From Escherichia coli (GTDB lineage: Bacteria > Pseudomonadota > Gammaproteobacteria > Enterobacterales > Enterobacteriaceae), in NCBI RefSeq assembly GCF_003991155.1, contig NZ_CP031293.1: a stretch of DNA of 64,000 nt, one strand, 5' to 3'. The first letter of the stretch is position 1; each line of letters opens with the position of its first letter. The translations under genes and the position numbers were made by a program. Below are positions 31,978 through 61,863 of this stretch, piece after piece. Under the pieces are notes generated by a model. The model did not search any database, had not been told where the DNA came from, and was given only the letters and a program-made list of their open reading frames with translations.

Positions 31978-32717
31978 GTAACTGGCCTTATCCCCGCATC
32001 GTCGCTCATCGTGGCGGCGGTAAGCTGGCCCCGGAAAACACCCTGGCGGCAATCGACGTCGGGGCAAAATACGGTCATAAAATGATCGAATTTGACGCGA
32101 AGTTATCGAAAGATGGCGAGATCTTCCTGCTCCATGACGACAATCTCGAACGCACCAGCAACGGCTGGGGCGTCGCGGGTGAACTGAACTGGCAGGATTT
32201 ACTGCGCGTGGATGCGGGCAGTTGGTACAGCAAAGCGTTTAAAGGTGAGCCGCTGCCGTTGCTTTCGCAGGTGGCGGAACGCTGTCGCGAACACGGGATG
32301 ATGGCGAATATCGAAATCAAACCCACCACTGGCACTGGACCATTAACGGGCAAAATGGTGGCGCTGGCGGCACGCCAACTGTGGGCCGGTATGACGCCGC
32401 CGCTGCTGTCATCGTTTGAGATTGATGCTTTAGAAGCTGCACAGCTGGCGGCACCGGAACTGCCGCGTGGTTTATTGCTTGATGAGTGGCGCGACGACTG
32501 GCGCGAACTGACCGCGCGGCTGGGCTGCGTCTCTATTCATCTCAATCATAAGTTACTCGATAAAGTGCGAGTGATGCAGTTGAAAGACGCCGGACTGCGG
32601 ATTCTGGTTTATACCGTCAATAAACCCCAGCGCGCGGCAGAGTTGCTGCGCTGGGGCGTGGATTGCATCTGTACCGATGCGATTGACGTGATTGGTCCGA
32701 ACTTTACGGCCCAATAG
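31974..32717 (+). CDS. ugpQ: Glycerophosphodiester phosphodiesterase UgpQ
   Basis: ORF track 247 aa; 4-nt overlap with ugpC. Confidence 0.93.
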
Positions 32718-33144
32718 TTTTCAACGGAATGTCAGGCTGCGGCGTGCTGGGCTGATTCAGCATGTCGCCGTTTCTCCTCTCCGGCAGCATATGCTGCTGA
32801 TTCAACGAACTATCCGGATTACGGTTGCTGTTTAACATCCCGCCGTTGGTGTTGGGCAGCATTTGCTGCCGGGCGGGATTTCGCTCCCCCGGCTGTGACT
32901 GCAACACCCGCTGAGAATTATTGTTTATCTGGTTTTCTAAATGCTGCTGTTGCAACTGAGTTTGCGTTTTCAGTTGCTGATTCAGCATCCCTTTTTGCTG
33001 GATTTGCTGAGTCTGCATCTGGGTTTGCATCCGCTGCTGGCTGGGTATCTGATACCCCGGCTGGTTAGGGTTGTTCAGAGTATTAATGGGCTGTGCAAAG
33101 CCGACAAACGGCAGGAGTGCCGTAAGAATCAGAAGTCGTTTCAT
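32704..33144 (-). CDS. yhhA: Gln-rich secreted protein YhhA (DUF2756)
   Basis: ORF track 146 aa; signal peptide, Q-rich low-complexity body; synteny. Confidence 0.85.
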
Positions 33145-33263
33145 CGCGTATCCTCCTCTGAAGATATCCTTTAAGTTTACTCGCTTCCCGACAAAACGAT
33201 GATTAATTCAGAGTTATATACCAGGCTTAGCTGGGGTTGCCCCTTAATCTCTGGAGAATAACG

Positions 33264-35006
33264 ATGATAAAACCGACGTTTTTACGCCGGGTGGCCATTG
33301 CTGCTCTGCTCTCAGGAAGTTGTTTTAGCGCCGCCGCCGCGCCTCCTGCGCCGCCCGTCTCGTATGGTGTGGAGGAAGATGTCTTCCACCCGGTACGCGC
33401 GAAACAGGGAATGGTAGCGTCTGTGGACGCCACTGCCACTCAGGTGGGGGTGGATATTCTCAAGGAGGGCGGGAATGCCGTTGATGCCGCCGTGGCGGTG
33501 GGCTACGCGCTGGCGGTAACGCATCCGCAGGCAGGGAATCTGGGCGGTGGTGGTTTTATGTTAATCCGCTCGAAAAATGGCAATACCACGGCTATCGATT
33601 TCCGCGAAATGGCACCCGCCAAAGCGACCCGCGATATGTTCCTCGATGATCAGGGCAACCCGGACAGCAAAAAATCACTCACTTCGCATCTGGCTTCCGG
33701 CACACCGGGTACGGTAGCAGGTTTCTCGCTGGCGCTGGATAAATACGGCACCATGCCGCTGAACAAAGTCGTGCAGCCCGCGTTTAAACTGGCACGCGAT
33801 GGTTTTATCGTTAACGACGCGCTGGCTGACGATCTCAAAACCTACGGTAGCGAAGTGTTGCCGAATCACGAAAACAGTAAAGCTATCTTCTGGAAAGAGG
33901 GCGAGCCGCTGAAAAAGGGCGACACGCTGGTGCAGGCGAACCTGGCAAAGAGCCTGGAGATGATTGCTGAAAACGGCCCGGACGAATTCTATAAAGGCAC
34001 GATTGCGGAACAGATCGCCCAGGAGATGCAGAAAAACGGTGGCTTGATCACTAAAGAAGATTTAGCAGCCTATAAAGCGGTCGAACGTACTCCGATAAGC
34101 GGCGATTATCGCGGGTATCAGGTTTACTCCATGCCACCGCCATCCTCCGGCGGGATCCATATCGTACAAATCCTCAATATTCTGGAAAACTTCGATATGA
34201 AGAAATACGGCTTTGGCAGCGCCGATGCGATGCAAATCATGGCAGAAGCGGAGAAATACGCCTACGCCGACCGCTCGGAATATCTTGGCGACCCGGATTT
34301 TGTCAAAGTACCGTGGCAGGCGCTGACCAATAAAGCCTATGCCAAATCTATTGCCGATCAAATTGATATCAATAAAGCGAAGCCATCCAGCGAAATTCGC
34401 CCCGGCAAGCTTGCGCCTTATGAGAGTAATCAAACTACCCATTACTCAGTGGTGGATAAAGACGGCAACGCGGTGGCGGTGACCTATACGCTGAACACCA
34501 CCTTCGGGACGGGCATTGTCGCGGGCGAGAGCGGTATTCTGCTTAATAACCAGATGGATGATTTCTCCGCCAAACCGGGCGTACCGAACGTTTACGGGCT
34601 GGTGGGCGGTGATGCCAACGCGGTTGGGCCGAACAAACGCCCGCTGTCGTCGATGTCACCAACCATTGTGGTGAAAGACGGTAAAACCTGGCTGGTTACC
34701 GGTAGCCCTGGCGGGAGTCGGATTATTACCACCGTGCTGCAAATGGTGGTGAATAGCATCGATTATGGCATGAATGTCGCCGAAGCGACCAATGCACCGC
34801 GTTTCCACCATCAGTGGTTGCCGGACGAGCTGCGTGTCGAAAAAGGGTTTAGCCCGGATACGCTCAAGCTGCTGGAAGCAAAAGGTCAGAAAGTGGCGCT
34901 GAAAGAGGCGATGGGCAGTACACAAAGCATTATGGTTGGGCCGGACGGTGAGTTGTACGGCGCATCTGACCCGCGCTCGGTGGATGATTTAACGGCGGGG
35001 TATTAA
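33264..35006 (+). CDS. ggt: Gamma-glutamyltranspeptidase
   Basis: ORF track 33237..35006; start moved to MIKPTFLRR giving 580 aa; signal peptide; autoprocessing Thr region (...QTTHYSV...). Confidence 0.95.
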   Translation: MIKPTFLRRVAIAALLSGSCFSAAAAPPAPPVSYGVEEDVFHPVRAKQGMVASVDATATQVGVDILKEGGNAVDAAVAVGYALAVTHPQAGNLGGGGFMLIRSKNGNTTAIDFREMAPAKATRDMFLDDQGNPDSKKSLTSHLASGTPGTVAGFSLALDKYGTMPLNKVVQPAFKLARDGFIVNDALADDLKTYGSEVLPNHENSKAIFWKEGEPLKKGDTLVQANLAKSLEMIAENGPDEFYKGTIAEQIAQEMQKNGGLITKEDLAAYKAVERTPISGDYRGYQVYSMPPPSSGGIHIVQILNILENFDMKKYGFGSADAMQIMAEAEKYAYADRSEYLGDPDFVKVPWQALTNKAYAKSIADQIDINKAKPSSEIRPGKLAPYESNQTTHYSVVDKDGNAVAVTYTLNTTFGTGIVAGESGILLNNQMDDFSAKPGVPNVYGLVGGDANAVGPNKRPLSSMSPTIVVKDGKTWLVTGSPGGSRIITTVLQMVVNSIDYGMNVAEATNAPRFHHQWLPDELRVEKGFSPDTLKLLEAKGQKVALKEAMGSTQSIMVGPDGELYGASDPRSVDDLTAGY

Positions 35007-35011
35007 GGTTA

Positions 35012-35040
35012 GCGGCCCTCTTAGTGGGAAGAGGGCCGTA
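35012..35040. terminator. Bidirectional hairpin between ggt and yrhB frame
   Basis: cggccctctt ... aagagggccg inverted repeat read from sequence. Confidence 0.5.
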
Positions 35041-35043
35041 TTG

Positions 35044-35328
35044 TCAGGGCAAGCCGAAGGTAGCCTTTTTTATTTCATAATCCTGTAGATATTCTTCCAG
35101 TGGCTTTGCCGTTCCCAGAGAATGAATTTCACCACTGCCTTTATCAATAATAAAAGGTGCGTTACCAGCTAAGCGCGCGGCCTCATCTCCAGATTCAAGA
35201 AATTATTGTGATTCGAAACAGAAATACCAGCCCTGGCTAAAACGTCCATGCAGAGTGATGACGACAGGGAGATCTGCATCATCAAGGTAATGGTTCGCTT
35301 TCGCGAATGCGTCGTGATAAGTAATCAT
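35044..35328 (-). pseudogene. yrhB: yrhB-like reading frame interrupted by in-frame TAA (41 aa N-terminal part plus 52 aa continuing frame)
   Basis: Hand translation of minus strand: MITYHDAFAKANHYLDDADLPVVITLHGRFSQGWYFCFESQ-stop(35203..35205)-FLESGDEAARLAGNAPFIIDKGSGEIHSLGTAKPLEEYLQDYEIKKATFGLP-stop(35044..35046). The continuous 94-codon frame matches my recollection of the length of K-12 YrhB. Confidence 0.55.
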
Positions 35329-35777
35329 AATTATAATAAATATTATTGTTGATCGTTATATTATTATTCTTGCGTTATACTTTGAGAAAAGACGCGTTCA
35401 TCTTCGTCAAAGATATTATTAAATGCTGGTTTTGAAAAAAGTTCATCGGGTAATATACAGTCACGAAATAAGTATCTGCTAATGTTTTGTGATTTCTTTT
35501 TCAGAACGTCGAACGGGATTTTCTTATTTAAGATATCAGAATCTTATGATTCGGGTGAAATTCTAACTAAATCAACATGTCACTAAAATCATCATAGCCA
35601 TTAGCTATTTCGGCTAAAATAGAGATTACATGTCTTCGGTCCATCTCACTTAAGGAGTGTAGTTCCGTTGTAAGTTTTTCCATAGCTTGCATTGCTAAGT
35701 TTCGAACAAGGAATTTTCTGCTGGTAATCTCTAAAAAGATGGCATGGTTTATAATGATTTTTGTTACCTTTTGATTA

Positions 35778-36272
35778 TTATGAACAACTGTCCATGATTT
35801 CGTTTAAGAATGAAGAGAAATCACTAAACGAACTGAATATATTTTCTGTGCCAATATTATCTCTAATTTCAAAAAAGTTATTTTTAATGTCATAAGTAAA
35901 TATTGAAATGCTATCATCCCCGATCACTAACCGTTCTTGTAGATCAGGGTTTATGAAATCATCATTATTTCTATAAAATTCATTTACGGCAAAAAGGTTT
36001 TTAACTGAAGGTTCTGGAATCGAGAGGCTGAATAATCGTAATCCATTAACTTCGAATCCATCCATTGCTCTTAAAAAAGTAAGATAATCAGGTTGATTAT
36101 TAAAGAGAATACTAACTTCATTACATAACTTCTCCAGGCAATTAGTTGGATTAGAATTAAATTTTATTTGGATTATACTTTCAATAAATGATTCCTTGAG
36201 CGGTGCTTCAAATGGATAGTCTAAATCATTCATCATTTTTTTTAATTTATTTATTTGGGTTTTAGTCATCAT
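35778..36272 (-). CDS. Putative immunity protein for the upstream Hcp-HNH effector (yrhA-type position)
   Basis: ORF track 164 aa, AT-rich, start overlaps effector stop (ATGA); position immediately downstream of a polymorphic toxin gene. No catalytic motif recognised. Confidence 0.55.
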   Translation of the reverse strand: MMTKTQINKLKKMMNDLDYPFEAPLKESFIESIIQIKFNSNPTNCLEKLCNEVSILFNNQPDYLTFLRAMDGFEVNGLRLFSLSIPEPSVKNLFAVNEFYRNNDDFINPDLQERLVIGDDSISIFTYDIKNNFFEIRDNIGTENIFSSFSDFSSFLNEIMDSCS

Positions 36273-37447
36273 TTTGTGGGTTCCATAATATTTTTCATGG
36301 GAGGATAAATTGAGCCAGATGGAATGGCCCAGGGAGTGATTTTGCTTTCACCTACTAATATTCCCTTAGCTATTCGTGATTGCATGTTAGTAAAAACTTT
36401 ATGATATGGTTCGTTTTCGATTAATACTAAATTTTCGAAATCATTAGTACCACCATCATCTAGAGATAGTTTATGGTGAACATTATAATTTAGAGGAACA
36501 TTGCCCTTTCTCATTCTTAAAAGGTCTTCGGCGTTGAATCTTCCAGATGCTTCGGAGGTTTTTGCAAGTTTGATAAGAAAATTTTTTCTTACAGTTTTAT
36601 TAAACTCCTTTCGTAAGTTAGCTAAGTCTTTTGAAGGTCTCTTAATGTATATTATTTCTATTATGTCTATACCATCAAGAAGTTTTTGTTGACCTCTAAG
36701 TTTGCCTAAGTAACTATTTATTTCTGTATATGTATCAACATTAGAACGCTTTGTTAAAAGAATAGATGCTGTTGCTATCGCTATGCCCGCTGTTTTTTCA
36801 TTTAGTATTTGATCATAGCCTTTTATTGCATCTCCACCCAGTTTTTCCGCAGTATCTCTGAATCCTTCAATGTTCCCATTGTATACGCCACCAGCAGCAA
36901 GTAGCCTGCCAATAGCTTTGCTGTTTAACGTTTTGAAACGATTATTTGTTTGGTTTTTTGAATTTGGTAAAAACAAACAGTTATAATTTTCAGGGAGTGC
37001 CAAATAGCTGAACTCGGTATTTGCGATAATCTGTTGACAGAGGATAAATTCATAACTAACAGTTATTGTTTCTGTATCCAGTTGATTTTCAATGATCTGA
37101 TGATGAATAGCCGATAAAAAAGCGCCTCTTAGTTGTATATAATAATACTTTTCCCATCTACCAAATCTATTTATTCGATAGAAGTCAAATCCCATAAATA
37201 ATTGTTCATTATTGTTAATGGAATTAATAAATAATGGAGTGCTTTTATCAATTAATTTACAAAATGTTATACCATGGAACTGTGAACCAAGCCCCGTATT
37301 AGTAATACTATTTAAGAGTGAGAATGTAAATATTTCATCCTCATGCCCGCTCTGCCAGCGATTACCTGTAGACTCAGAAGTCCCACAACCTGCGGAGATG
37401 CTTCCTTGTTGTTCTCCCGTTACTGTCAGGTAAACAATATTACTCAT
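36269..37447 (-). CDS. yhhZ: Hcp-domain protein with C-terminal HNH-type nuclease toxin domain (Hcp-ET type, yhhZ)
   Basis: ORF track 392 aa. N-terminus MSNIVYLTVTGEQQGSISAGCGTSESTGNRW...GHEDEI matches the Hcp fold signature; C-terminus NYNVHHKLSLDDGGTNDFENLVLIENEPYHKVF carries an HNH-like motif. Confidence 0.82.
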   Translation of the reverse strand: MSNIVYLTVTGEQQGSISAGCGTSESTGNRWQSGHEDEIFTFSLLNSITNTGLGSQFHGITFCKLIDKSTPLFINSINNNEQLFMGFDFYRINRFGRWEKYYYIQLRGAFLSAIHHQIIENQLDTETITVSYEFILCQQIIANTEFSYLALPENYNCLFLPNSKNQTNNRFKTLNSKAIGRLLAAGGVYNGNIEGFRDTAEKLGGDAIKGYDQILNEKTAGIAIATASILLTKRSNVDTYTEINSYLGKLRGQQKLLDGIDIIEIIYIKRPSKDLANLRKEFNKTVRKNFLIKLAKTSEASGRFNAEDLLRMRKGNVPLNYNVHHKLSLDDGGTNDFENLVLIENEPYHKVFTNMQSRIAKGILVGESKITPWAIPSGSIYPPMKNIMEPTK

Positions 37448-37682
37448 CCCTGAAAAGTCCTTTTATGGCATGCTATTTTATTAATGGCACTATTATGCTT
37501 GTTAATTGTTATTTATTTACTCCAGGAAATTGTAGGCGTATATATTAATAATAAAATATTACACTTTAGGACGTAATTATGAGGTAAATCTCAATATATT
37601 TATTGGGCAAATAAATACATTAAAGGAAGATATGCCGATTTTGAATGACGCCCTTTTTCCATCTCAGAAAAAGGGCACTATC

Positions 37683-38171
37683 TTATTTCACCCGCGCCAT
37701 ATAATACGCATCGACATATTCACCATTACGTAATGCGTACTTCTTGCCAGTCCCTTCAATCTCAAAGCCGAATTTTTTATAGACCTTAATTGCTGGCGCG
37801 TTATCGACGAACACCGTTAGCTCGATACGATCTACCCGCAACCAGTTGTCGCACATATCAATCATTTCGCGCATCAGGGCGCTGGCGACGCCGCGGTTCT
37901 TCCAGCGAGAGTCGACACAGATACCAAAATCGGCAACATGACTGCGGCGCGGGCGTTGCTGTACATCAATGGTGAGATGACCTACTACGGTTCCATCAAT
38001 ACAGGCGACGAGTTGCTTGATGCCGGGGCGTTCGGCGAGTCGCTCCTGCCACATATAGTCTGAAGGATGAGGCACCTGTAGCGTGTTGTAATACACCTCC
38101 GGCTGGGCGTGAATCTGCCTGATGGCCTCGTAATCCCGTGTTTCTGCGTGGCGTATCACTATCTCACTCAT
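37683..38171 (-). CDS. yhhY: GNAT-family N-acetyltransferase YhhY
   Basis: ORF track 37683..38264; start moved to MSEIVIRHAET giving 162 aa; GNAT acetyl-CoA motif region (RWKNRGVASALM). Confidence 0.88.
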   Translation of the reverse strand: MSEIVIRHAETRDYEAIRQIHAQPEVYYNTLQVPHPSDYMWQERLAERPGIKQLVACIDGTVVGHLTIDVQQRPRRSHVADFGICVDSRWKNRGVASALMREMIDMCDNWLRVDRIELTVFVDNAPAIKVYKKFGFEIEGTGKKYALRNGEYVDAYYMARVK

Positions 38172-38266
38172 TCCTTTGTCCTCTTTGGGGTAAATGTCCC
38201 TTTCAACATCATTGACTTTCAAATGCGAGTCAAATGCATTTTTTTTGCAAAAAGTGTTGGACAAGT

Positions 38267-38289
38267 GCGAATGAGAATGATTATTATTG
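38267..38289 (+). promoter_or_regulatory. Fur box in ryhB promoter
   Basis: gcgaatgagaatgattattattg immediately upstream of the ryhB 5' end; resembles Fur consensus gataatgataatcattatc. Confidence 0.6.
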
Positions 38290-38293
38290 TCTT

Positions 38294-38386
38294 GCGATCA
38301 GGAAGACCCTCGCGGAGAACCTGAAAGCACGACATTGCTCACATTGCTTCCAGTATTACTTAGCCAGCCGGGTGCTGGCTTTTTTT
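38294..38386 (+). ncRNA. ryhB: Fur-regulated small RNA RyhB
   Basis: gcgatcaggaagaccctcgcggagaacctgaaagcacgacattgctcacattgcttccagtattacttagccagccgggtgctggctttt matches the RyhB sequence as I recall it, ending in a GC hairpin plus U-run; lies between yhhY and yhhX as in K-12. Confidence 0.85.
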
Positions 38387-38505
38387 TTGATCTTTCGTTT
38401 TCAAATTATCCACGGGAAGTGCTTGTGTTCGTTATGCGCACTCCAGTAGGAACCACGTCCGCTTTGCGCTAAGGTGTAAATAACCCCCTTAAAAAGGACG
38501 AAATC

Positions 38506-39543
38506 ATGGTCATCAACTGCGCCTTTATTGGCTTCGGCAAAAGCACCACCCGTTACCATCTGCCGTATGTACTTAACCGCAAGGATAGCTGGCATGTCGC
38601 GCATATTTTTCGCCGCCATGCGAAGCCGGAAGAACAGGCTCCCATTTACTCTCATATCCATTTCACCAGCGATCTCGACGAAGTGCTAAACGATCCCGAT
38701 GTTAAGCTGGTTGTCGTCTGCACCCACGCGGATAGCCATTTCGAATACGCGAAGCGCGCGCTGGAAGCCGGGAAAAATGTGCTGGTCGAAAAACCGTTCA
38801 CCCCGACGCTTGCCCAGGCGAAGGAGCTGTTTGAGTTGGCGAAAAGCAAAGGGCTGACCGTCACGCCGTATCAGAATCGTCGCTTTGATTCCTGCTTCCT
38901 GACGGCGAAAAAAGCGATTGAAAGCGGTAAGCTGGGAGAGATTGTTGAAGTGGAAAGCCATTTTGACTATTACCGCCCGGTGGCAGAAACCAAACCTGGG
39001 CTGCCGCAGGATGGCGCGTTCTATGGCCTTGGTGTGCATACCCTCGACCAGATTATCTCGCTGTTCGGTCGCCCGGATCACGTCGCTTATGACATCCGCA
39101 GCCTGCGTAATAAAGCCAATCCTGACGACACCTTCGAAGCGCAGCTGTTTTATGGCGATCTAAAAGCCATCGTCAAAACCAGCCATCTGGTGAAAATCGA
39201 TTATCCGAAATTTATCGTTCACGGTAAGAAAGGTTCGTTTATTAAATACGGTATCGACCAGCAGGAAACCAGCCTGAAGGCTAATATTATGCCGGGCGAA
39301 CCGGGATTCGCAGCGGATGATTCGGTCGGTGTGCTGGAGTATGTCAATGACGAGGGCGTGACGGTCAGAGAAGAGATGAAGCCGGAGGTGGGCGATTACG
39401 GGCGCGTTTATGATGCGTTGCATCAAACCATCACCAACGGTGCGCCAAATTACGTCAAGGAATCTGAAGTTCTTACCAATCTGGAAATCCTTGAACGCGG
39501 TTTTGAGCAAGCTTCTCCCTCCACAGTGACTCTCGCGAAGTAA
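38506..39543 (+). CDS. yhhX: Gfo/Idh/MocA-family NAD(P)-dependent oxidoreductase YhhX
   Basis: ORF track 345 aa; N-terminal Rossmann motif AFIGFGKS. Confidence 0.9.
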   Translation: MVINCAFIGFGKSTTRYHLPYVLNRKDSWHVAHIFRRHAKPEEQAPIYSHIHFTSDLDEVLNDPDVKLVVVCTHADSHFEYAKRALEAGKNVLVEKPFTPTLAQAKELFELAKSKGLTVTPYQNRRFDSCFLTAKKAIESGKLGEIVEVESHFDYYRPVAETKPGLPQDGAFYGLGVHTLDQIISLFGRPDHVAYDIRSLRNKANPDDTFEAQLFYGDLKAIVKTSHLVKIDYPKFIVHGKKGSFIKYGIDQQETSLKANIMPGEPGFAADDSVGVLEYVNDEGVTVREEMKPEVGDYGRVYDALHQTITNGAPNYVKESEVLTNLEILERGFEQASPSTVTLAK

Positions 39544-39548
39544 GTTTG

Positions 39549-39596
39549 ATGACCCCTCGAATAGTTCAATTTTTTTGAACAGAGGGGTCAATTTTC
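39549..39596 (+). terminator. Nested hairpin terminator after yhhX
   Basis: tgacccctc ... gaggggtca outer stem with inner gttcaa/ttgaac stem and T-run. Confidence 0.5.
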
Positions 39597-39665
39597 ACCC
39601 TCTATCATCCCAGGCTGATCGGGTCCACACTAAGCCCATCGAAATCATTCAGGGGGCGAATACAA

Positions 39666-40361
39666 ATGATCTACTTACGCAAAGCAAATGAACGTGGTCA
39701 TGCAAATCATGGCTGGCTGGACTCCTGGCATACTTTCTCTTTTGCCAACTACTACGACCCGAACTTTATGGGTTTCTCCGCGCTGCGCGTGATTAACGAC
39801 GACGTGATTGAAGCAGGGCAGGGCTTTGGCACTCACCCGCATAAAGATATGGAAATTTTGACCTACGTGCTGGAAGGTACTGTTGAGCACCAGGACAGCA
39901 TGGGCAATAAAGAGCAGGTTCCGGCGGGTGAGTTCCAGATTATGAGTGCGGGTACGGGTATCCGTCACTCTGAGTACAACCCAAGCAGCACCGAGCGTCT
40001 GCATCTGTATCAAATCTGGATCATGCCGGAAGAAAACGGCATCACGCCTCGCTATGAGCAGCGCCGTTTCGATGCCGTACAGGGCAAACAGCTGGTGCTC
40101 TCGCCGGATGCGCGAGATGGTTCGCTGAAAGTGCATCAGGATATGGAACTGTATCGTTGGGCATTGCTGAAAGATGAGCAGTCGGTGCATCAGATTGCCG
40201 CTGAACGCCGCGTCTGGATCCAGGTGGTGAAAGGCAATGTCACCATTAACGGCGTGAAAGCCTCGACCAGCGATGGTCTGGCAATCTGGGATGAGCAGGC
40301 AATCTCCATTCATGCGGATAGCGACAGCGAAGTGTTACTGTTCGATCTGCCGCCGGTTTAA
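39666..40361 (+). CDS. yhhW: Pirin-like quercetin 2,3-dioxygenase YhhW
   Basis: ORF track 231 aa; cupin His motifs (HPHKDMEI). Confidence 0.9.
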   Translation: MIYLRKANERGHANHGWLDSWHTFSFANYYDPNFMGFSALRVINDDVIEAGQGFGTHPHKDMEILTYVLEGTVEHQDSMGNKEQVPAGEFQIMSAGTGIRHSEYNPSSTERLHLYQIWIMPEENGITPRYEQRRFDAVQGKQLVLSPDARDGSLKVHQDMELYRWALLKDEQSVHQIAAERRVWIQVVKGNVTINGVKASTSDGLAIWDEQAISIHADSDSEVLLFDLPPV

Positions 40362-40584
40362 AACTCAACGGCATCTTTGAAGCCTGCCTTTTTGCAGGCT
40401 TCCTCGCTCGCTCCGGTCGCGTGCTGATATACGCTTCCGGGGTTTTGCCGTGTCGTTAGCACAATGCGATGCAATTGATTTAGTGTATATCTAATAATTG
40501 TAAACAAGCACTGTTTTCCCCGGGAAGGTTCTGATGCGTCCGTGTTAAACTAAGAGAATCTATCTCTTTTGTACCTTCAGGACG

Positions 40585-41580
40585 ATGAAAAAGAAAAGAC
40601 CCGTACTTCAGGATGTGGCTGACCGTGTAGGCGTGACCAAAATGACGGTCAGCCGTTTTTTACGCAACCCGGAGCAGGTTTCCGTCGCTCTACGCGGCAA
40701 GATTGCCGCCGCTCTTGATGAACTGGGTTATATTCCCAATCGCGCGCCCGATATCCTCTCTAACGCCACCAGCCGGGCGATTGGCGTCCTGTTACCTTCT
40801 CTCACCAACCAGGTTTTTGCGGAAGTATTACGCGGAATCGAAAGCGTCACCGACGCGCACGGTTATCAGACCATGCTGGCCCACTACGGTTATAAACCGG
40901 AAATGGAGCAAGAACGCCTCGAATCCATGCTCTCCTGGAATATCGACGGCCTGATCCTCACTGAACGTACGCACACGCCGCGCACCTTAAAGATGATTGA
41001 AGTGGCGGGGATTCCAGTGGTGGAACTGATGGACAGCAAGTCGCCATGCCTCGATATCGCCGTCGGTTTTGATAACTTTGAAGCGGCACGCCAGATGACC
41101 ACCGCCATTATTGCTCGCGGGCATCGTCACATTGCCTATCTCGGCGCACGCCTCGACGAACGTACTATCATCAAACAGAAGGGATACGAACAGGCGATGC
41201 TGGATGCAGGCCTGGTGCCGTATAGCGTGATGGTCGAGCAATCTTCTTCTTACTCTTCCGGTATTGAACTGATTCGCCAGGCGCGGCGGGAATATCCGCA
41301 GCTGGATGGCGTGTTCTGTACTAATGATGATCTGGCGGTCGGCGCGGCGTTTGAATGTCAGCGTCTGGGGTTAAAAGTTCCTGACGATATGGCGATTGCC
41401 GGTTTCCATGGTCATGACATTGGTCAGGTGATGGAACCACGGTTGGCGAGCGTACTGACGCCGCGTGAGCGGATGGGCAGTATTGGCGCTGAACGCCTGC
41501 TGGCGCGTATTCGTGGCGAATCTGTGACACCGAAAATGTTAGATTTAGGTTTCACCTTGTCACCGGGCGGATCTATTTAA
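40585..41580 (+). CDS. gntR: Gluconate repressor GntR (LacI family)
   Basis: ORF track 331 aa; N-terminal HTH (VTKMTVSRFL). Confidence 0.95.
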   Translation: MKKKRPVLQDVADRVGVTKMTVSRFLRNPEQVSVALRGKIAAALDELGYIPNRAPDILSNATSRAIGVLLPSLTNQVFAEVLRGIESVTDAHGYQTMLAHYGYKPEMEQERLESMLSWNIDGLILTERTHTPRTLKMIEVAGIPVVELMDSKSPCLDIAVGFDNFEAARQMTTAIIARGHRHIAYLGARLDERTIIKQKGYEQAMLDAGLVPYSVMVEQSSSYSSGIELIRQARREYPQLDGVFCTNDDLAVGAAFECQRLGLKVPDDMAIAGFHGHDIGQVMEPRLASVLTPRERMGSIGAERLLARIRGESVTPKMLDLGFTLSPGGSI

Positions 41581-43729: not shown

Positions 43730-45826
43730 ATGGAAAAGCACGGAGCTGAATTGCTTTTACAGCGGATGTTAGGAAATACCACCGCTACTTTCAGGGAAGG
43801 GCAATGGGAAGCCATAGATGCAGTGGTTAATCAGCGGCGAAAACTGCTGGTTGTACAGCGCACCGGCTGGGGGAAAAGTGCCGTGTACTTCATCGCCAGT
43901 AAAATCTTCCGCGATCGCGGCGCTGGCCCGACAATTATCATCTCTCCTTTGCTTGCCCTGATGCGTAACCAGGTTGCCGCCGCTGAACGGTTAGGTATTA
44001 CGGCTGAAACGTTGAATTCTACAAACAGGGAAGAATGGCAGCGCATTAGCGATAAGTTGCTGCAAGGTGAGGTCGATTGCTTGCTGGTTTCCCCGGAACG
44101 TTTGGCAAACCAGGACTTTATCGAAACGGTTTTATATCCTATAGCCGATCGTATTGGCTTGCTTGTGGTCGACGAGGCGCACTGCATCTCTGATTGGGGC
44201 CACGATTTTCGCCCGGATTACCGACGTATATTAGATATTTTGCGCCAACTGCCTGCGAATACCCCTGTTCTGGGTACAACCGCGACAGCGAATAACCGTG
44301 TTGTTGAGGATATCCGTCAGCAATTGGGTGACATTGTGATTCAGCGTGGAACGCTGGCTCGCGAAAGTTTGGCGCTTGATGCCTTAGTCTTAGGAGAACA
44401 GTCATCCCGTCTGGCATGGTTAGCAACGGTTATCCCTCAGTTTTCCAAATCGGGAATTGTTTATACCCTGACGACTCGCGATGCTGAACTTGTCGCCGAG
44501 TGGTTAAGGAAAAATGGTATCAGTGCATTTGCTTACTACAGCGGCGTGACTTGTGAAGGCGCGGAAGATTCTAATACTGCCAGGGAATATCTGGAGCAGG
44601 CACTGCTGGCAAATAAAATCAAAGTGCTGGTCGCGACGACGGCATTAGGTATGGGGTTTGATAAACCTGATTTAGGTTTCGTCATTCATTATCAGATGCC
44701 GGGGTCTATTGTCGGTTACTACCAACAGGTGGGGCGTGCCGGGCGTGCTATAGATTCCGCAGTTGGCATATTGCTTTGTGGTGGTGAAGACCGCGCTATT
44801 CATCAATTCTTCCGTGAAAGCGCCTTTCCTGCGGAGGCGCAAATTCATGAAATACTCAACGTACTTAGCGAGAATGACGGTCTTACCCTACGAGGCATTG
44901 AACAACGGACGAATCTTCGTTATGGGCAAATAGAAAAAGCACTGAAATTATTGGTAGCGGAAAATCCATCGCCTGTGGTGTATACCGAGAAATTATGGCG
45001 CAGAACTATCGTCAGTTTTTCTCCTGATCATGAACGAATTAACCATTTGATGAATCAGAGAAAAAGTGAGCTGGCAGACGTTGAAAGCTATATCACGACC
45101 AAGGAGTGCAAAATGCAATTTCTGCGCCGTGCACTCGATGAGCCAAGTGCCGAACGTTGTGGTAAATGTAGCAGTTGTCTTCAACATCCGTTATTGTCGC
45201 CCGACATTGATAGCGGCTTACTCCATGCGGCAAATTTATTTATTAAACACGCTGACCTGCCGTTAAATCTCAATAAACAGGTGGCAGCTGGGGCTTTTAC
45301 GCAATACGGATTTAAAGGGAACTTGCCTGCGGGTTTACAAGGATCTACGGGGCGAATCCTTTCTCGTTGGGGAGATTCCGGGTGGGGAAAGCAGGTAGCA
45401 CAGGAGAAAAAAACGGGGCGCTTAAGTGATGAGCTGGTAGAAGCATGTGCGGAAATGGTTTGCCAACGCTGGAATCCGCATCCTGAACCAACCTGGGTAT
45501 GCTGCGTTCCTTCATTAAGGCACCTCGACCTGGTTCCTGATTTTGCCCGGCGACTGGCGGCGAAACTTGGCTTACCTTTTATTGATGCCATTGAAAAAGT
45601 CGTGGACAATCCACCGCAGAAAATGCAGCAAAACCGTTTTCACCAGTGTCAAAATCTCGACGGGGCGTTTGTGATTACCCCTCCTTTGATGCCAGGTCCG
45701 GCGTTGCTGGTTGACGATATCGTGGATTCTGCATGGACGCTGACAGTTCTGACAGCACTGTTACGCAAGGCAGGTTGCCCGACGGTTTATCCTCTTGCCC
45801 TTGCTTCTACCTCGGTAAAAAATTGA
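43730..45826 (+). CDS. RecQ-family SF2 helicase fused to Cys-cluster and C-terminal ComFC-like phosphoribosyltransferase-type domain
   Basis: ORF track 698 aa. Walker A QRTGWGKS, DEAH box VVDEAHCISDWGHDFRPDY (RecQ-type), TATA motif, motif VI QQVGRAGRA, Cys cluster CGKCSSC, C-terminal PRT-like loop ALLVDDIVDSAWT preceded by ComF-like segment. By my recollection not present at this position in K-12. Confidence 0.8.
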   Translation: MEKHGAELLLQRMLGNTTATFREGQWEAIDAVVNQRRKLLVVQRTGWGKSAVYFIASKIFRDRGAGPTIIISPLLALMRNQVAAAERLGITAETLNSTNREEWQRISDKLLQGEVDCLLVSPERLANQDFIETVLYPIADRIGLLVVDEAHCISDWGHDFRPDYRRILDILRQLPANTPVLGTTATANNRVVEDIRQQLGDIVIQRGTLARESLALDALVLGEQSSRLAWLATVIPQFSKSGIVYTLTTRDAELVAEWLRKNGISAFAYYSGVTCEGAEDSNTAREYLEQALLANKIKVLVATTALGMGFDKPDLGFVIHYQMPGSIVGYYQQVGRAGRAIDSAVGILLCGGEDRAIHQFFRESAFPAEAQIHEILNVLSENDGLTLRGIEQRTNLRYGQIEKALKLLVAENPSPVVYTEKLWRRTIVSFSPDHERINHLMNQRKSELADVESYITTKECKMQFLRRALDEPSAERCGKCSSCLQHPLLSPDIDSGLLHAANLFIKHADLPLNLNKQVAAGAFTQYGFKGNLPAGLQGSTGRILSRWGDSGWGKQVAQEKKTGRLSDELVEACAEMVCQRWNPHPEPTWVCCVPSLRHLDLVPDFARRLAAKLGLPFIDAIEKVVDNPPQKMQQNRFHQCQNLDGAFVITPPLMPGPALLVDDIVDSAWTLTVLTALLRKAGCPTVYPLALASTSVKN

Positions 45827-47028
45827 TGAATCTTTCAGCCAATGCACAAGCGACCCTCCTGCTAACCAGCGATTTTTCTCGCGCGGCGGCGAGTGAGTAT
45901 AAACCTCTTAGTAATAGTGAATGGGGGAAGTTTGCATTATGGCTGAAGCACCAACGTATCAGTCCCGCCGATCTTCTGGTGCCGCAACCGCAAGAGAAAC
46001 TTACAGGCTGGAGCGATCCGCGTATTTCTCAGGAGCGTATTCTTGGCTTGCTGGCGCGTGGCCATAGTCTGGCGTTGGCGGTAGATAAGTGGCAACGCGC
46101 CGGTTTATGGATCTTAACCCGCGGAGATGCCGATTATCCCGTTCGCTTGAAAAACCGATTGCGAACGGATGCACCTCCCGTTTTATTTGGCTGCGGGAAT
46201 AAAGCATTACTGCAAGCGGAAGGTATGGCGATTGTTGGCTCGCGAGATGCTCCGACTGCCGATTTGCGCTATACCCAACAACTGGCAGCGAAACTGGCCC
46301 AACAGGGGATTTGCGTTATCTCTGGTGGTGCGCGAGGTATTGATGAATGTGCAATGGCGTCGGCACTGGAGGCCGGGGGAACTGCCGTTGGCGTATTAGC
46401 TGATAGCTTGTTAAAAACGAGTACGTTAGTGAAATGGCGTGAAGGGCTTATAGCAGGCAACCTGGTGTTGATTTCGCCGTTTTACCCAGAGGTACGTTTC
46501 ACCGTCGGCAATGCGATGGCGCGAAATAAATATATTTATTGCCTTGCTGAAAGCGCAATGGTTGTACGTGCGGGAATGACCGGTGGAACGATAACCGGAG
46601 CGATGGAGGCGTTAAAACATCAGTGGCTGCCTGTGCAGGTTAAACCAAATCAGGATGTGCAATCAGCCAATTCACGATTAGTAGAAAATGGGGCGTCATG
46701 GAGTGCTGAACAGGCTGAGAATGTGACGATCAGACTGCCAGACGTTCCTGGGCTGATGTATGACAGAGCACTCCGTAACGCTCAACCAGAATTGTTTTCG
46801 CTGCACGAAGATGACGCAAATTACGCAGTGATGCCCTCGCATACCCCTGTCGATTTTTATCAACTTTTTGTGGCGGAACTGGCGATCCTTGCAAAGGAAT
46901 CGATAAGTATTGAAAGGCTGGCGTCTTGTACTGGTTTAACCATCGAACAAATTAGTGTGTGGCTGAACCGCGCAGAAGAAGAGGGAAGGGTTATCCGATT
47001 GGGCGAAGGTCATTATCAGTTCAGGTAA
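45826..47028 (+). CDS. DprA/Smf-family (SLOG superfamily) protein, paralog of housekeeping DprA
   Basis: ORF track 45733..47028; likely start ATG 45826 overlapping the helicase stop as TGATG (400 aa). Rossmann-type DprA core AIVGSRDAPTADLRYTQQLAAKLAQQGICVISGGARGIDECAMASALEAGG, N-terminal SAM-like region, C-terminal winged-helix-like tail. Confidence 0.8.
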   Translation: MNLSANAQATLLLTSDFSRAAASEYKPLSNSEWGKFALWLKHQRISPADLLVPQPQEKLTGWSDPRISQERILGLLARGHSLALAVDKWQRAGLWILTRGDADYPVRLKNRLRTDAPPVLFGCGNKALLQAEGMAIVGSRDAPTADLRYTQQLAAKLAQQGICVISGGARGIDECAMASALEAGGTAVGVLADSLLKTSTLVKWREGLIAGNLVLISPFYPEVRFTVGNAMARNKYIYCLAESAMVVRAGMTGGTITGAMEALKHQWLPVQVKPNQDVQSANSRLVENGASWSAEQAENVTIRLPDVPGLMYDRALRNAQPELFSLHEDDANYAVMPSHTPVDFYQLFVAELAILAKESISIERLASCTGLTIEQISVWLNRAEEEGRVIRLGEGHYQFR

Positions 47029-58719: not shown

Positions 58720-60237
58720 ATGGAAAGAATAATGCAAAACGGAAAATGGATTTTGACCTCGCTGGTAATGACTTTTTTTGGCATCCCCATACTGGCGCAA
58801 TTTTTGGCAGCGGTTGTTGCCATGCTGGGGGCCGGGCTTGCCGCTATTCTTGAGGTTTGCAATTTACTCTTTACGCCAACAATTTATCTTCTACTCAACG
58901 TCTTTATGCTGACGCTGGGGGCGATAATCATATTTTTCTCTGGTCGCGTGTGGACTGGTGATAGCGCACCAGAAAAAAGAGAAATAGCCGCCTGGCGACA
59001 ATGCTTTTTTCTCTTACCCGCGCTATTAACCCTGATTGGCTGGATAATCGCGCTACATCTGGCAGATTATCAACTTCGCCAGATGGGAGCCGGTTGGTTG
59101 GCAAACCTTATGCTTCCCTGGTTGGGCGTTTTTACAGTCTCATTCGTCGGTGGTGAGTACTGGTGGATAGTCATTATTCCCGTTGGCGCGCATATCAGTT
59201 TTTCACTGGGATACGGCTGGCCGACCAGACACCCTTTAACCGGCACCTCCGGTCTACGTTGCCGTAATTTACTTCTGTTCATTCTTCTCTTACTGGGTAT
59301 TGTCGCTGGTTATCAGGCTTATTTATATAAACAGCTTAATCCCGGCGTCGGTGTGCGTGAAAATATTGATACCTGGGCCTGGCGACCCGATAAACTTAAT
59401 AATCAACTGACGCCACTGCGTGGTAAACCACAAATTCAATTTACGCAAAACTGGCCGCGACTCGATGGCGCTACGGCGGCGTACCCCATTTATGCCTCTG
59501 CATTTTATGCATTAAGTGTAATACCAGAGGATTTTCACGTTTGGGATTATCTGGATAACTCTCGTACGCCAGAAGCATATAACAAAATCGTTAACGGTGA
59601 TGCCGATATTATTTTCGTGGCGCAACCTTCCGATGGGCAAAAAAAACGCGCTGAGAAATCGGGCGTCACTTTGCTGTACACGCCATTTGCCCGTGAAGCG
59701 TTTGTTTTCATCGTCAATGCGGATAATCCGGTTAATTCCCTGACTGAACAACAAGTGCGTGACATTTTTAGTGGCGAAATTACCAACTGGCGCACGGTTG
59801 GCGGTAAGGATCAGGAGATCCAGACCTGGCAACGCCCGGAAGACTCTGGCAGCCAGACAGTGATGCAATCACAGGTCATGAAAAATGTCCGCATGATCTC
59901 GCCGCAGGAAACCGAAGTGGCAAGCATGATGGAGGGAATGATTAAAGTCGTTGCCGAATACCGTAATACAAACAACGCAATAGGCTACACCTTCCGCTAT
60001 TACGCAACACAAATGAATGCCGATAAAAATATAAAACTGCTAGCGATTAACGGTATTGCACCGACTGCGGAAAATATTCGTAACGGCAAATATCCGTATA
60101 TCATCGATGCCTTTATGGTAACGCGGGAAAATACTACGTCAGAAACACAAAAACTGGTCGAATGGTTTTTAACGCCGCAGGGACAGAGTCTGGTGGAAGA
60201 TGTGGGCTATGTGCCGCTGTATCCAACAATGAAATAA
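58720..60237 (+). CDS. Membrane-anchored PstS-like (PBP type 2) binding-domain protein: N-terminal polytopic domain fused to periplasmic binding domain
   Basis: ORF track 505 aa; about 200 aa hydrophobic N-terminus then PstS-like motifs GATAAYPIYASAF, VAQPSDGQKKRAE, INGIAPTAENIRNGKYPY. The region corresponds to the yzgL pseudogene position of K-12 as I recall it. Confidence 0.7.
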   Translation: MERIMQNGKWILTSLVMTFFGIPILAQFLAAVVAMLGAGLAAILEVCNLLFTPTIYLLLNVFMLTLGAIIIFFSGRVWTGDSAPEKREIAAWRQCFFLLPALLTLIGWIIALHLADYQLRQMGAGWLANLMLPWLGVFTVSFVGGEYWWIVIIPVGAHISFSLGYGWPTRHPLTGTSGLRCRNLLLFILLLLGIVAGYQAYLYKQLNPGVGVRENIDTWAWRPDKLNNQLTPLRGKPQIQFTQNWPRLDGATAAYPIYASAFYALSVIPEDFHVWDYLDNSRTPEAYNKIVNGDADIIFVAQPSDGQKKRAEKSGVTLLYTPFAREAFVFIVNADNPVNSLTEQQVRDIFSGEITNWRTVGGKDQEIQTWQRPEDSGSQTVMQSQVMKNVRMISPQETEVASMMEGMIKVVAEYRNTNNAIGYTFRYYATQMNADKNIKLLAINGIAPTAENIRNGKYPYIIDAFMVTRENTTSETQKLVEWFLTPQGQSLVEDVGYVPLYPTMK

Positions 60238-60262
60238 CGCTCGAGAGAAAGGAATCAGCGCA

Positions 60263-61255
60263 ATGAATAAATTCACCGGTGTTTTACTATTAGGTACGGC
60301 GCTACTGGCGGGATGTGTCGACCGGGAAGGGTACTATAACAGCGTCAGGGAAGAAGACAGCCATGGACTGACGTCTCTGCGGGGGCAACCTGAATTACGT
60401 TACAACGATGATTGGTCAAGATGGCCGAGAGTGTACGGCGCTACAGCCTTATACCCGCTGTATGCCTCCGCGTATTATGAATTAGTACCCGAGCCAAAAG
60501 ATAAGGATCGAACCTCGCTGGCCTGGCAGGCGTATGGTTTGCAACAAACCCGAACAGCTGAAGCCTACGATAGTCTGATTAAGGGTACCGCGACGGTTAT
60601 TTTTGTTGCACAACCGTCGGAAGGACAGAAAAAACGTGCAGAAGAAGCAGGTGTTAAACTCAAATATACCGCTTTCGCCCGCGAAGCCTTTGTCTTTATC
60701 GTTGATATCAAAAACCCGGTTAATTCACTTAGCGAACAGCAGGTCAAAGACATTTTTAGCGGTAAAGTGAGTCGCTGGAATAAAGTGGGCGGCGGTGACG
60801 AAAGTATAAAAGTCTGGCAGCGGCCAGAAGATTCTGGAAGCCAAACGGTTATGAAGGGACTGGTTATGCAAGATACTCCAATGCTGCCAGCCAAAAAATC
60901 CACTGTTATCGATCTTATGGGCGGTTTAATTACCGAAGTCGCCGACTACCAAAATACACCATCTTCTATTGGATACACCTTCTACTATTACGTCACACGT
61001 ATGAATGACAATATGCTCAAAATGCGCAAACAGATCAAACTGCTGGCTATAAATGGCGTTGCACCTACAGAGGAAAATATCCGTAACGGCACTTATCCGT
61101 ACATAATTCATGCTTATATGGTGACGCACGAAAACCCTACGCTGGAAACACAGAAATTCGTCGACTGGTTTTTAAGCCCGCAGGGACAGCAATTGGTAGA
61201 GGATGTGGGCTATGTGCCGATTTATGACGCATCATCCGAATCATCAGGACAATAA
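60263..61255 (+). CDS. PstS-like (PBP type 2) lipoprotein, paralog of the upstream binding domain
   Basis: ORF track 330 aa; lipobox LLAGC; same PstS-like motifs (GATALYPLYASAY, VAQPSEGQKKRAE, INGVAPTEENIRNGTYPY). Confidence 0.7.
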   Translation: MNKFTGVLLLGTALLAGCVDREGYYNSVREEDSHGLTSLRGQPELRYNDDWSRWPRVYGATALYPLYASAYYELVPEPKDKDRTSLAWQAYGLQQTRTAEAYDSLIKGTATVIFVAQPSEGQKKRAEEAGVKLKYTAFAREAFVFIVDIKNPVNSLSEQQVKDIFSGKVSRWNKVGGGDESIKVWQRPEDSGSQTVMKGLVMQDTPMLPAKKSTVIDLMGGLITEVADYQNTPSSIGYTFYYYVTRMNDNMLKMRKQIKLLAINGVAPTEENIRNGTYPYIIHAYMVTHENPTLETQKFVDWFLSPQGQQLVEDVGYVPIYDASSESSGQ

Positions 61256-61257
61256 AG

Positions 61258-61863
61258 ATGAATAAAATCAGACTTTATATTCCTCCGTTAATTCTTGGTT
61301 TTGTTATTGTGCCGTTGTTGGTGTGGCCGACGGTGGTTGCGCTGGCTGCTTGTGTTATCACGCTGAGTTTTATGGGAGAAATACTGTTCTCTATCCCGCT
61401 CATGTTCAGGAGTATTTCACTTCTGGAATTCCAACTTGGGTTATTGGCTGAATATGCACTTTTTTTCTGTGCCATGTGTTGCGTTGGTTGGCAATTTTCT
61501 TGCAGAACTCAATCTGAACTGAAAAGCAGACTCCATTGTTGGTTGGTATTTGCACCAGTTTATTTCTGGTTGCTCCTGTGGAATATCATTTTCTATGTCG
61601 CGCCAGCGCAAATTGCTTTGCTGGAAAATATGCGCAATTTCTTTCTGACCATTGTCTGGTTACCCCTGAATTTTTTTCAATTTGGGTCTCAGCCGTGGAC
61701 TGACTTTATCGGTCCGATAAGCGCCCAGCTTGGTTTTGCATTGGGATATTATTGCCAGTGGCGTAGCAAAAATAGAAGTCAGAGGAAGAAGTGGGGCGAG
61801 TGGGTAACGTGCTTAAGTTTGGCGATTTTAGCTCAGGGGCCGTTATTCAATTATTTACAATGA
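61258..61863 (+). CDS. Polytopic membrane protein resembling the N-terminal membrane domain of the 58720..60237 product
   Basis: ORF track 201 aa; hydrophobic; shares a short motif (GFALGYY vs SFSLGYGW) and size with the N-terminal domain of the first gene. Start 3 nt after the upstream stop. Confidence 0.6.
   Translation: MNKIRLYIPPLILGFVIVPLLVWPTVVALAACVITLSFMGEILFSIPLMFRSISLLEFQLGLLAEYALFFCAMCCVGWQFSCRTQSELKSRLHCWLVFAPVYFWLLLWNIIFYVAPAQIALLENMRNFFLTIVWLPLNFFQFGSQPWTDFIGPISAQLGFALGYYCQWRSKNRSQRKKWGEWVTCLSLAILAQGPLFNYLQ

Follow-up and report, generated by a model that had tools for sequence, protein, structure and literature searches.

Why does an Escherichia coli chromosome keep an intact pair of toxin and immunity genes of a type VI secretion system (T6SS) when no such machine is found with it? 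The question is raised by yhhZ and yrhA, which lie between ggt and yhhY in the stretch analysed here, 64,000 nucleotides of E. coli contig NZ_CP031293.1 (assembly GCF_003991155.1); this stretch is called the window, and position numbers refer to its whole length. The pair is not a new object but the already known yhhZ-yrhA of E. coli, of the Hcp-ET1/ETI1 type and reportedly characterised. Very probably, it is a T6SS effector-immunity module of that type, which in strains with the machine would work by the mechanism proposed below and which most likely has been retained in this lineage for the immunity that it confers.

The gene order ggt, yrhB, yrhD, yrhA, yhhZ, yhhY is common to the window, K-12 and strain 55989. 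The window YhhZ is 98% identical to that of K-12, and the pair shares 97% (YhhZ) and 96% (YrhA) amino-acid identity with the pair at the same locus of 55989. In RefSeq, yhhZ is annotated as a Hcp-family T6SS effector; the annotation of K-12 MG1655 lists 'putative endonuclease YhhZ', a yrhA split by the insertion sequence (IS) IS1E, and yrhD and yrhB. The protein of 55989 and C227-11 has been named Hcp-ET1 and its neighbour ETI1 (preprint, bioRxiv 10.1101/2024.03.05.583533). According to reviews (PMC6730261, PMC6099711, PMC9990079), Hcp-ET1 of STEC004 and O104:H4 degrades the DNA of target cells via a predicted HNH DNase; the same reviews, reporting Ma et al. 2017, state that it is delivered by T6SS-2 and not by T6SS-1 and that ETI1 neutralises it. 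Jablonska et al. 2017 (PMC5714182) placed YhhZ in group 32 of the His-Me finger nucleases.

The initial annotation of the window, made from the letters alone, had read a Hcp signature at the N-terminus of YhhZ, and this is not a chance resemblance. Residues 1-147 score 112.4 bits with NCBIfam TIGR03344, whose cut-off is 58.9, and Pfam T6SS_HCP (PF05638) matches at E = 1.9e-10. Hcp proteins of known structure match with E values from 5e-6 down to 2e-11, the best being Hcp3 (3he1; E = 2e-11). When residues 1-170 were compared with four Hcp proteins of 55989, the closest was the T6SS-2 protein RS01120 (37% identity, E = 3e-32), followed by a second T6SS-2 protein, RS01205 (30%, E = 7e-15); the Hcp of T6SS-1 matched at E = 1e-4, and AaiC of T6SS-3 gave no match. 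Thus, the Hcp domain of YhhZ is closest to the Hcp of T6SS-2, which fits the reported dependence on that system.

The HNH-like motif that had been noticed at the C-terminus (HH...DDGG...N...H) is present as ...NV-H324-H325-KLSL-D330-D331-G332-G333-T-N335-DFE-N339-LVLIENEPY-H349, and its assignment, weak when made from the single sequence, is firm at the level of the family and of the fold. A search with YhhZ 171-392 against 1.84 billion representative proteins found 648 relatives. The core that they conserve, about 140 amino acids equivalent to YhhZ residues 243-383 or so, always stands at the C-terminus, in proteins of 170 to 1542 amino acids; the N-termini of the relatives sampled were LXG, WXG100, PT-TG, PAAR, Tox-PAAR-like, DUF4280, RHS, MuF_C or Hcp. 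Such varied N-termini in front of one core are typical of the C-terminal domains of polymorphic toxins. Across the sampled family, Pfam HNH matched 65 of 67 members at E<=0.1 and 10 at E<=0.001. Among 67 diverse homologues R279, F282, H324, H325, D330, G333, N335, N339, L342, H349, Q356 and Y381 are invariant; in a set of 115 sequences H324, H325, N335 and N339 are invariant and H349 is nearly so, and the family-invariant catalytic residues are all intact in the window YhhZ. In an AlphaFold model of residues 166-392 (mean predicted local distance difference test score, pLDDT, 85.5; above 95 in the core), a strand at 321-325 ends in the two histidines, N339 precedes a strand at 340-344, and a helix at 345-360 carries H349. 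The modelled core is thus a predicted ββα-metal finger of the HNH / His-Me finger nuclease fold, and a Foldseek search with the toxin model ranked the DNases of pyocins S2/AP41/S8 and colicins E7/E9/E2 at the top with a probability of about 1.0. The linker between the two domains is modelled as four to five helices, with pLDDT of 50-85.

The open reading frames of 392 and 164 amino acids stand in the list of open reading frames as first described, with an overlap of 4 nt (ATGA, 36269-36272) in which the stop codon of yhhZ overlaps the start codon of yrhA, an arrangement suggesting that yrhA is translationally coupled to yhhZ. YrhA matches its own NCBIfam family, NF038335, at E = 3e-37. A Pfam profile search gave no match to it even at E<=10, the SMI1_KNR4/SUKH profiles included; some UniRef entries label close homologues SMI1/KNR4. 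From its model, YrhA would have the alpha+beta SUKH (SMI1/KNR4) immunity fold, a membership by fold only. SUKH was reportedly described by Zhang, Iyer and Aravind in 2011 as a classic immunity fold against the nuclease toxins of polymorphic toxin systems. The proposal of a coupled immunity gene thus holds as a putative assignment, upheld by the overlap, by the fold model and by the co-variation with the toxin domain described below. A second immunity gene may once have stood beside it: YrhB of K-12, a 'putative heat shock chaperone' by annotation, has a match to Pfam Imm35 (PF15567) with E = 4.6e-23, so that intact YrhB looks like the product of an orphan polymorphic-toxin immunity gene of the Imm35 family. 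Because of this match, the islet appears to be a small toxin/immunity cluster, whose orphan immunity gene yrhB is broken in the window strain.

The toxin domain has close relatives on a different N-terminus. From residue 172 onwards, with K172-T-L-N-S-K-A as the boundary of homology, YhhZ shares 58-70% identity with proteins of about 380 amino acids from Enterobacter, Leclercia, Pantoea, Franconibacter, Erwinia and Serratia, whose N-terminal 170 or so amino acids belong to PF26362 (DUF8093). Comparison of the DUF8093 profile with the profile of the Hcp N-terminus by hhalign gave a probability of 0.2%, that is, no detectable similarity, and the idea of a hidden Hcp in DUF8093 was dropped. A gene for 164-167 amino acids follows at every DUF8093 locus examined, and the one compared, from Enterobacter, encodes a YrhA homologue with 62% identity. 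The toxin domain and YrhA-type immunity thus seem to travel together across different N-terminal domains. These copies, too, are orphans: each consists of two genes, and within 8-10 kb of it no T6SS gene occurs. Our literature search for DUF8093 found no mention of it. We tentatively put forward, as a rather unlikely conjecture, that linker, HNH domain and YrhA form a mobile cassette grafted on two unrelated N-termini, Hcp (Escherichia, Citrobacter) and DUF8093 (Enterobacter, Pantoea, Franconibacter, Erwinia, Serratia), nearly all copies being two-gene orphans; DUF8093 might then be an unrecognised trafficking domain, or the cassette might have a role independent of secretion. A role of the latter kind could also account for the intact Hcp version in the T6SS-less E. 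coli genomes (at least 735, see below), the one matching the window among them. The assignments of YrhB to Imm35 and of YrhA to the SUKH fold, and DUF8093 in place of Hcp in relatives, are small gains for annotation.

Is the pair an orphan in its host genome? The chromosome used for these tests was NZ_CP029747.1 (strain 2016C-3878, assembly GCF_003204955.1), which is essentially identical to the window: 100% over 1-32498 and 39998-64000, with one mismatch in 32000-40700. In the RefSeq annotation of the matching 64 kb, yhhZ is the sole T6SS gene, in agreement with the initial annotation, which had seen no structural genes. Probes were taken from 55989, in which T6SS-2 lies beside tRNA-Asp (aspV) and T6SS-3 (aai) and T6SS-1 (sci-1, with tle1/tli1) share one island; chimeric megablast queries joined the pair to the sheath gene tssC of T6SS-2, or to those of T6SS-1 and T6SS-3. 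At the aspV site of NZ_CP029747.1 we found dnaQ, tRNA-Asp and yafV with nothing inserted, and the megablast probes for tssC of T6SS-1, -2 and -3 matched this chromosome at the islet only. The same was true of each of the 31 chromosomes whose pair is identical, none of which gave a match to tssC of the three types. With an empty aspV site and no tssC match, the pair is truly orphaned in the matching lineage, and delivery of the toxin is not expected there. A genome-wide search for T6SS core genes had been proposed initially; it was run for tssC on the matching chromosome and found none. Two fates had been offered for the pair, delivery by a T6SS encoded elsewhere or retention for immunity. The first is largely refuted by these results; the balance lies with the second, or with slow decay.

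The orphan state is not peculiar to this lineage. In a census of 5426 complete E. coli genomes, in which overlaps were obtained by subtraction and are bounds rather than exact figures, the islet matched chromosomes only. Both genes were present in 3812 genomes (3827 places matching two genes), and in 3767 of the 5426 at least 80% of both lay in one piece. The pair or tssC of T6SS-2 was found in 4328 genomes (6102 places), which leaves about 2275 places for tssC of T6SS-2. Consequently, at most about 1759 genomes, 55989 among them, have both the pair and tssC of T6SS-2, and at least 2053 carriers (54%) are without the latter. Subtraction gave 1318 places for tssC of T6SS-1 or T6SS-3, and thus at least 735 carriers (at least 19%) lack all three types. 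Conversely, about 516 genomes, including O157:H7, have T6SS-2 and not the pair, and the locus is empty or otherwise filled in about 30% of genomes.

How might the module work, and why would it persist? In strains with the machine, the Hcp domain of YhhZ would join the inner tube of T6SS-2, probably mixed with ordinary Hcp, as we infer from the literature. Once fired into a neighbouring bacterium, the protein would cut DNA there with its C-terminal HNH (ββα-metal) nuclease, and YrhA, made from the overlapping downstream gene, would bind and block the nuclease in the producer and its kin. In a host without T6SS the toxin would be undeliverable; the module then most likely persists as YrhA protects against the Hcp-ET1 of T6SS-2-positive E. 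coli, the toxin gene being carried along under weaker constraint. The ratios of nonsynonymous to synonymous substitution rates (dN/dS) in pairwise comparisons of six alleles are consistent with this. They range from 0.18 to 0.90 for yhhZ and from 0.08 to 0.69 for yrhA; the ranges overlap, and yrhA was below yhhZ in all nine pairs with both values defined, which leans towards stronger constraint on yrhA and is no proof of it. Strain GPT24-02 carries a premature stop in yhhZ, at codon 264, together with an intact yrhA (L018 592-1770). The likeliest state of the pair in the matching strain is retention for immunity or slow decay.

One possible explanation of the second kind, rather unlikely in our view, is that the pair is simply a decaying relic: T6SS-2 was lost, the module has no function and drifts towards a pseudogene, and its intactness is merely a matter of time. 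Decay is visible at the locus, as the neighbours yrhB and yrhD have already become pseudogenes in the window strain, IS1 interrupts yrhA of K-12, the stop codon mentioned above and IS insertions have arisen in other genomes, dN/dS of yhhZ is 0.8-0.9 between close alleles, and the site is empty or differently occupied in roughly the 30% of genomes counted above. However, a relic would hardly be expected to be as widespread in one piece as the census shows, to be kept by the carriers that lack all three tssC types, or to have every family-invariant catalytic residue intact. Furthermore, yrhA has dN/dS values of 0.08-0.28, those of yhhZ are 0.28-0.38 across the distance from phylogroups A/B1 to B2, and the pair is syntenic in Citrobacter, which argues for long persistence.

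We consider it quite improbable that the pair has a role independent of T6SS, as an addiction module of the toxin-antitoxin kind or as an abortive-infection (anti-phage) module acting in the producer, with the Hcp domain irrelevant or repurposed. Such a role would suit its persistence in many T6SS-less genomes and the finding of the same toxin-immunity cassette as two-gene orphans behind DUF8093, and Blondel et al. 2009 (PMC2907695) suggested that YhhZ is unlinked to T6SS function. Nevertheless, PADLOC models match neither YhhZ nor YrhA, and the coexistence in K-12 of an intact yhhZ and a disrupted yrhA speaks against classical addiction. The Hcp domain shows good conservation, scores above the curated cut-off and is specifically like that of T6SS-2, and T6SS2-dependent delivery has been published (PMC6730261, PMC6099711, bioRxiv 10.1101/2024.03.05.583533). 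Delivery by a T6SS encoded elsewhere in the same genome, which is the normal case in many strains, the pair and the T6SS-2 sheath gene occurring together in roughly 1750 genomes such as 55989, is very improbable for this lineage with its empty aspV site and without a tssC match on the matching chromosome or the 31 with an identical pair.

Several points weigh against a functional module retained for immunity. Pfam HNH (PF01844) matches YhhZ alone weakly (E = 0.013 over 22 residues) and Col-Pyo_DNase insignificantly (E = 1.9), so that of the profile comparison proposed at the outset the single-sequence part came out weak, while the family and the fold gave the firm result described above. Blondel et al. 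2009 (PMC2907695), who called YhhZ an 'evolved Hcp' unlinked to a T6SS cluster, described its HNH domain as 'degenerate'. K-12 MG1655 has an intact yhhZ and a yrhA split by IS1E (L010 3539-4810), the reverse of what retention for immunity would lead one to expect; this implies that yhhZ of K-12 is silent or non-toxic at native levels, or that truncated YrhA is still protective. The dN/dS values come from 1-27 substitutions per comparison. The tssC probes, run by megablast, were from one strain, 55989, and of the matching strain they covered the chromosome. Finally, the accounts of activity, neutralisation and T6SS2-dependence are those of reviews and a preprint, for an allele 97% identical to the one in the window.

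The coordinates of the features are collected in Table 1.

Table 1. Features of the yhhZ-yrhA islet in the window, and the related cassette in other genera
Feature	Position	Strand	Description	Evidence
yhhZ	36269..37447	-	392-amino-acid Hcp-ET1-type effector: Hcp domain, helical linker and predicted HNH DNase toxin	open reading frame list, orthology
yhhZ, Hcp (TssD) tube-protein domain	36998..37447	-	residues 1 to about 150	TIGR03344, PF05638, Hcp3
yhhZ, helical linker or 'pre-toxin' region	36722..36997	-	residues about 151-242	homology boundary and model
yhhZ, predicted HNH / His-Me-finger DNase toxin core	36293..36721	-	residues about 243-385; ββα motif 321-360 (H324/H325, N339, H349)	
yrhA	35778..36272	-	164-amino-acid putative cognate immunity protein, ETI1-type, predicted SUKH/SMI1-KNR4 fold	
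AT-rich 5' region of the operon	37448..37682	-	from yhhY stop/hairpin to yhhZ start	
yrhD remnant	35570..35683	-	small open reading frame, partial pseudogene	RefSeq
yrhB pseudogene	35044..35328	-	internal stop (TAA)	seen in sequence; RefSeq note 'internal stop'
Variable islet, entire	35007..37683	none	ggt stop codon to yhhY stop codon	homology breaks, GC profile
Linker + HNH + YrhA-like cassette behind DUF8093	L004 8001-9663; L022 10001-11656; L023 10001-11648		Enterobacter, Pantoea, Franconibacter and other genera	

The islet, about 2.7 kb long, has a GC fraction of 0.29-0.34 over 35200-37600 compared with 0.50-0.58 in ggt and yhhY, and the remark that it is more AT-rich than its flanks was thus correct. 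Against the empty site of sequence type (ST) 131, homology of the window ends exactly at the stop codons of ggt and yhhY; against O157:H7 it extends about 36 nt beyond the ggt stop. The ggt-yhhY spacer varies in content: some genomes have the full islet there and others only yrhB, O157:H7 has a DUF4225 gene, and in ST131 the spacer of 60 bp is empty. At the same site, Citrobacter freundii has a Hcp-HNH gene, YrhA and a YrhB homologue (Imm35), and the presence of the same cluster at the same place suggests that the acquisition is old. The product of a 294-amino-acid gene beside yhhY in C. freundii showed no similarity to the DUF4225 protein of O157. Flanking direct or inverted repeats were sought around the islet, and merely short AT-rich chance matches were found; the annotation has no tRNA or integrase next to it. 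In the 5' region of the operon, a hairpin lies on the yhhY side (37650-37676), and promoter-like matches were no more frequent than in shuffled sequence, so no promoter was assigned. An Rfam scan of 34900-38600 gave a sole match, beyond the islet: the small RNA RyhB (RF00057, 83 bits) at 38323-38387 (+), between yhhX and yhhY. PADLOC gave no match to the O157 DUF4225 protein or the Enterobacter DUF8093 protein, as to YhhZ and YrhA, and assignment to a known defence system was set aside as unsupported.

Other features of the window were mapped from the annotation of NZ_CP029747.1. Genes for a DprA-like protein and a RecQ-family helicase, overlapping each other, lie at about 43730-47028 between yhgN and gntU, which are adjacent in 55989; the two possibly form a defence or mobile islet. 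At the start of the window (about 1-519), between nikR and yhhJ, stands a hicA/hicB type II toxin-antitoxin pair, and the interval from glpD to glgP (about 58729-61863) holds two genes for PstS-family phosphate-binding proteins and one hypothetical gene. In NZ_CP029747.1 itself, the yhhZ region (about 4.08-4.15 Mb) and the region of leu, dnaQ and cirA (0.5-2.75 Mb) are in opposite orientation relative to the K-12 gene order, which reflects either a large inversion or a difference in assembly orientation.

Read as a module retained for immunity, yhhZ-yrhA illustrates cleanly how an effector-immunity pair can outlive its secretion system. The census sets a floor on how frequent such orphans are, and it bears on how 'orphan' immunity shapes the competition of E. 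coli strains in the gut. The exchange of Hcp for DUF8093 and the scale of orphan retention are mildly new leads.

Compared with known systems, the toxin recalls the DNases of colicins E7/E9 and pyocins S2/AP41. These are delivered by receptor and translocation domains, whereas the carrier of YhhZ would be a Hcp tube, and their immunity proteins are four-helix Im proteins, whereas YrhA has a predicted SUKH fold. From Rhs2-CT/RhsI2 of Serratia marcescens and other Rhs-, PAAR- and LXG-linked HNH toxins, YhhZ differs in its carrier, which is the tube protein Hcp and neither a Rhs cage nor a PAAR spike. From SUKH immunity proteins such as YobK of Bacillus subtilis and RhsPI (for RhsP-WHH), YrhA differs in sequence: it matches no Pfam SMI1_KNR4/SUKH profile and has its own family, NF038335. 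The DUF8093-HNH proteins share the linker, the HNH toxin and the YrhA-like immunity, with DUF8093 and not Hcp at the N-terminus. YhhZ (b3442) and YrhA (b3443) of K-12 occupy the same locus in a host that is likewise T6SS-less; there, yrhA is a pseudogene split by IS1E, whereas in the window yrhA is intact and yrhB is broken instead. Hcp-ET1/ETI1 of STEC004, O104:H4 C227-11 and 55989 (Ma et al. 2017) likewise lie between ggt and yhhY and combine Hcp, HNH and a downstream immunity gene. The window pair differs from the 55989 copies by 10 residues in YhhZ and 6 in YrhA, and its setting differs from that in the Hcp-ET1 hosts, as yrhB and yrhD are pseudogenes in the window and the matching chromosome is without T6SS-2, the reported delivery system of this effector.

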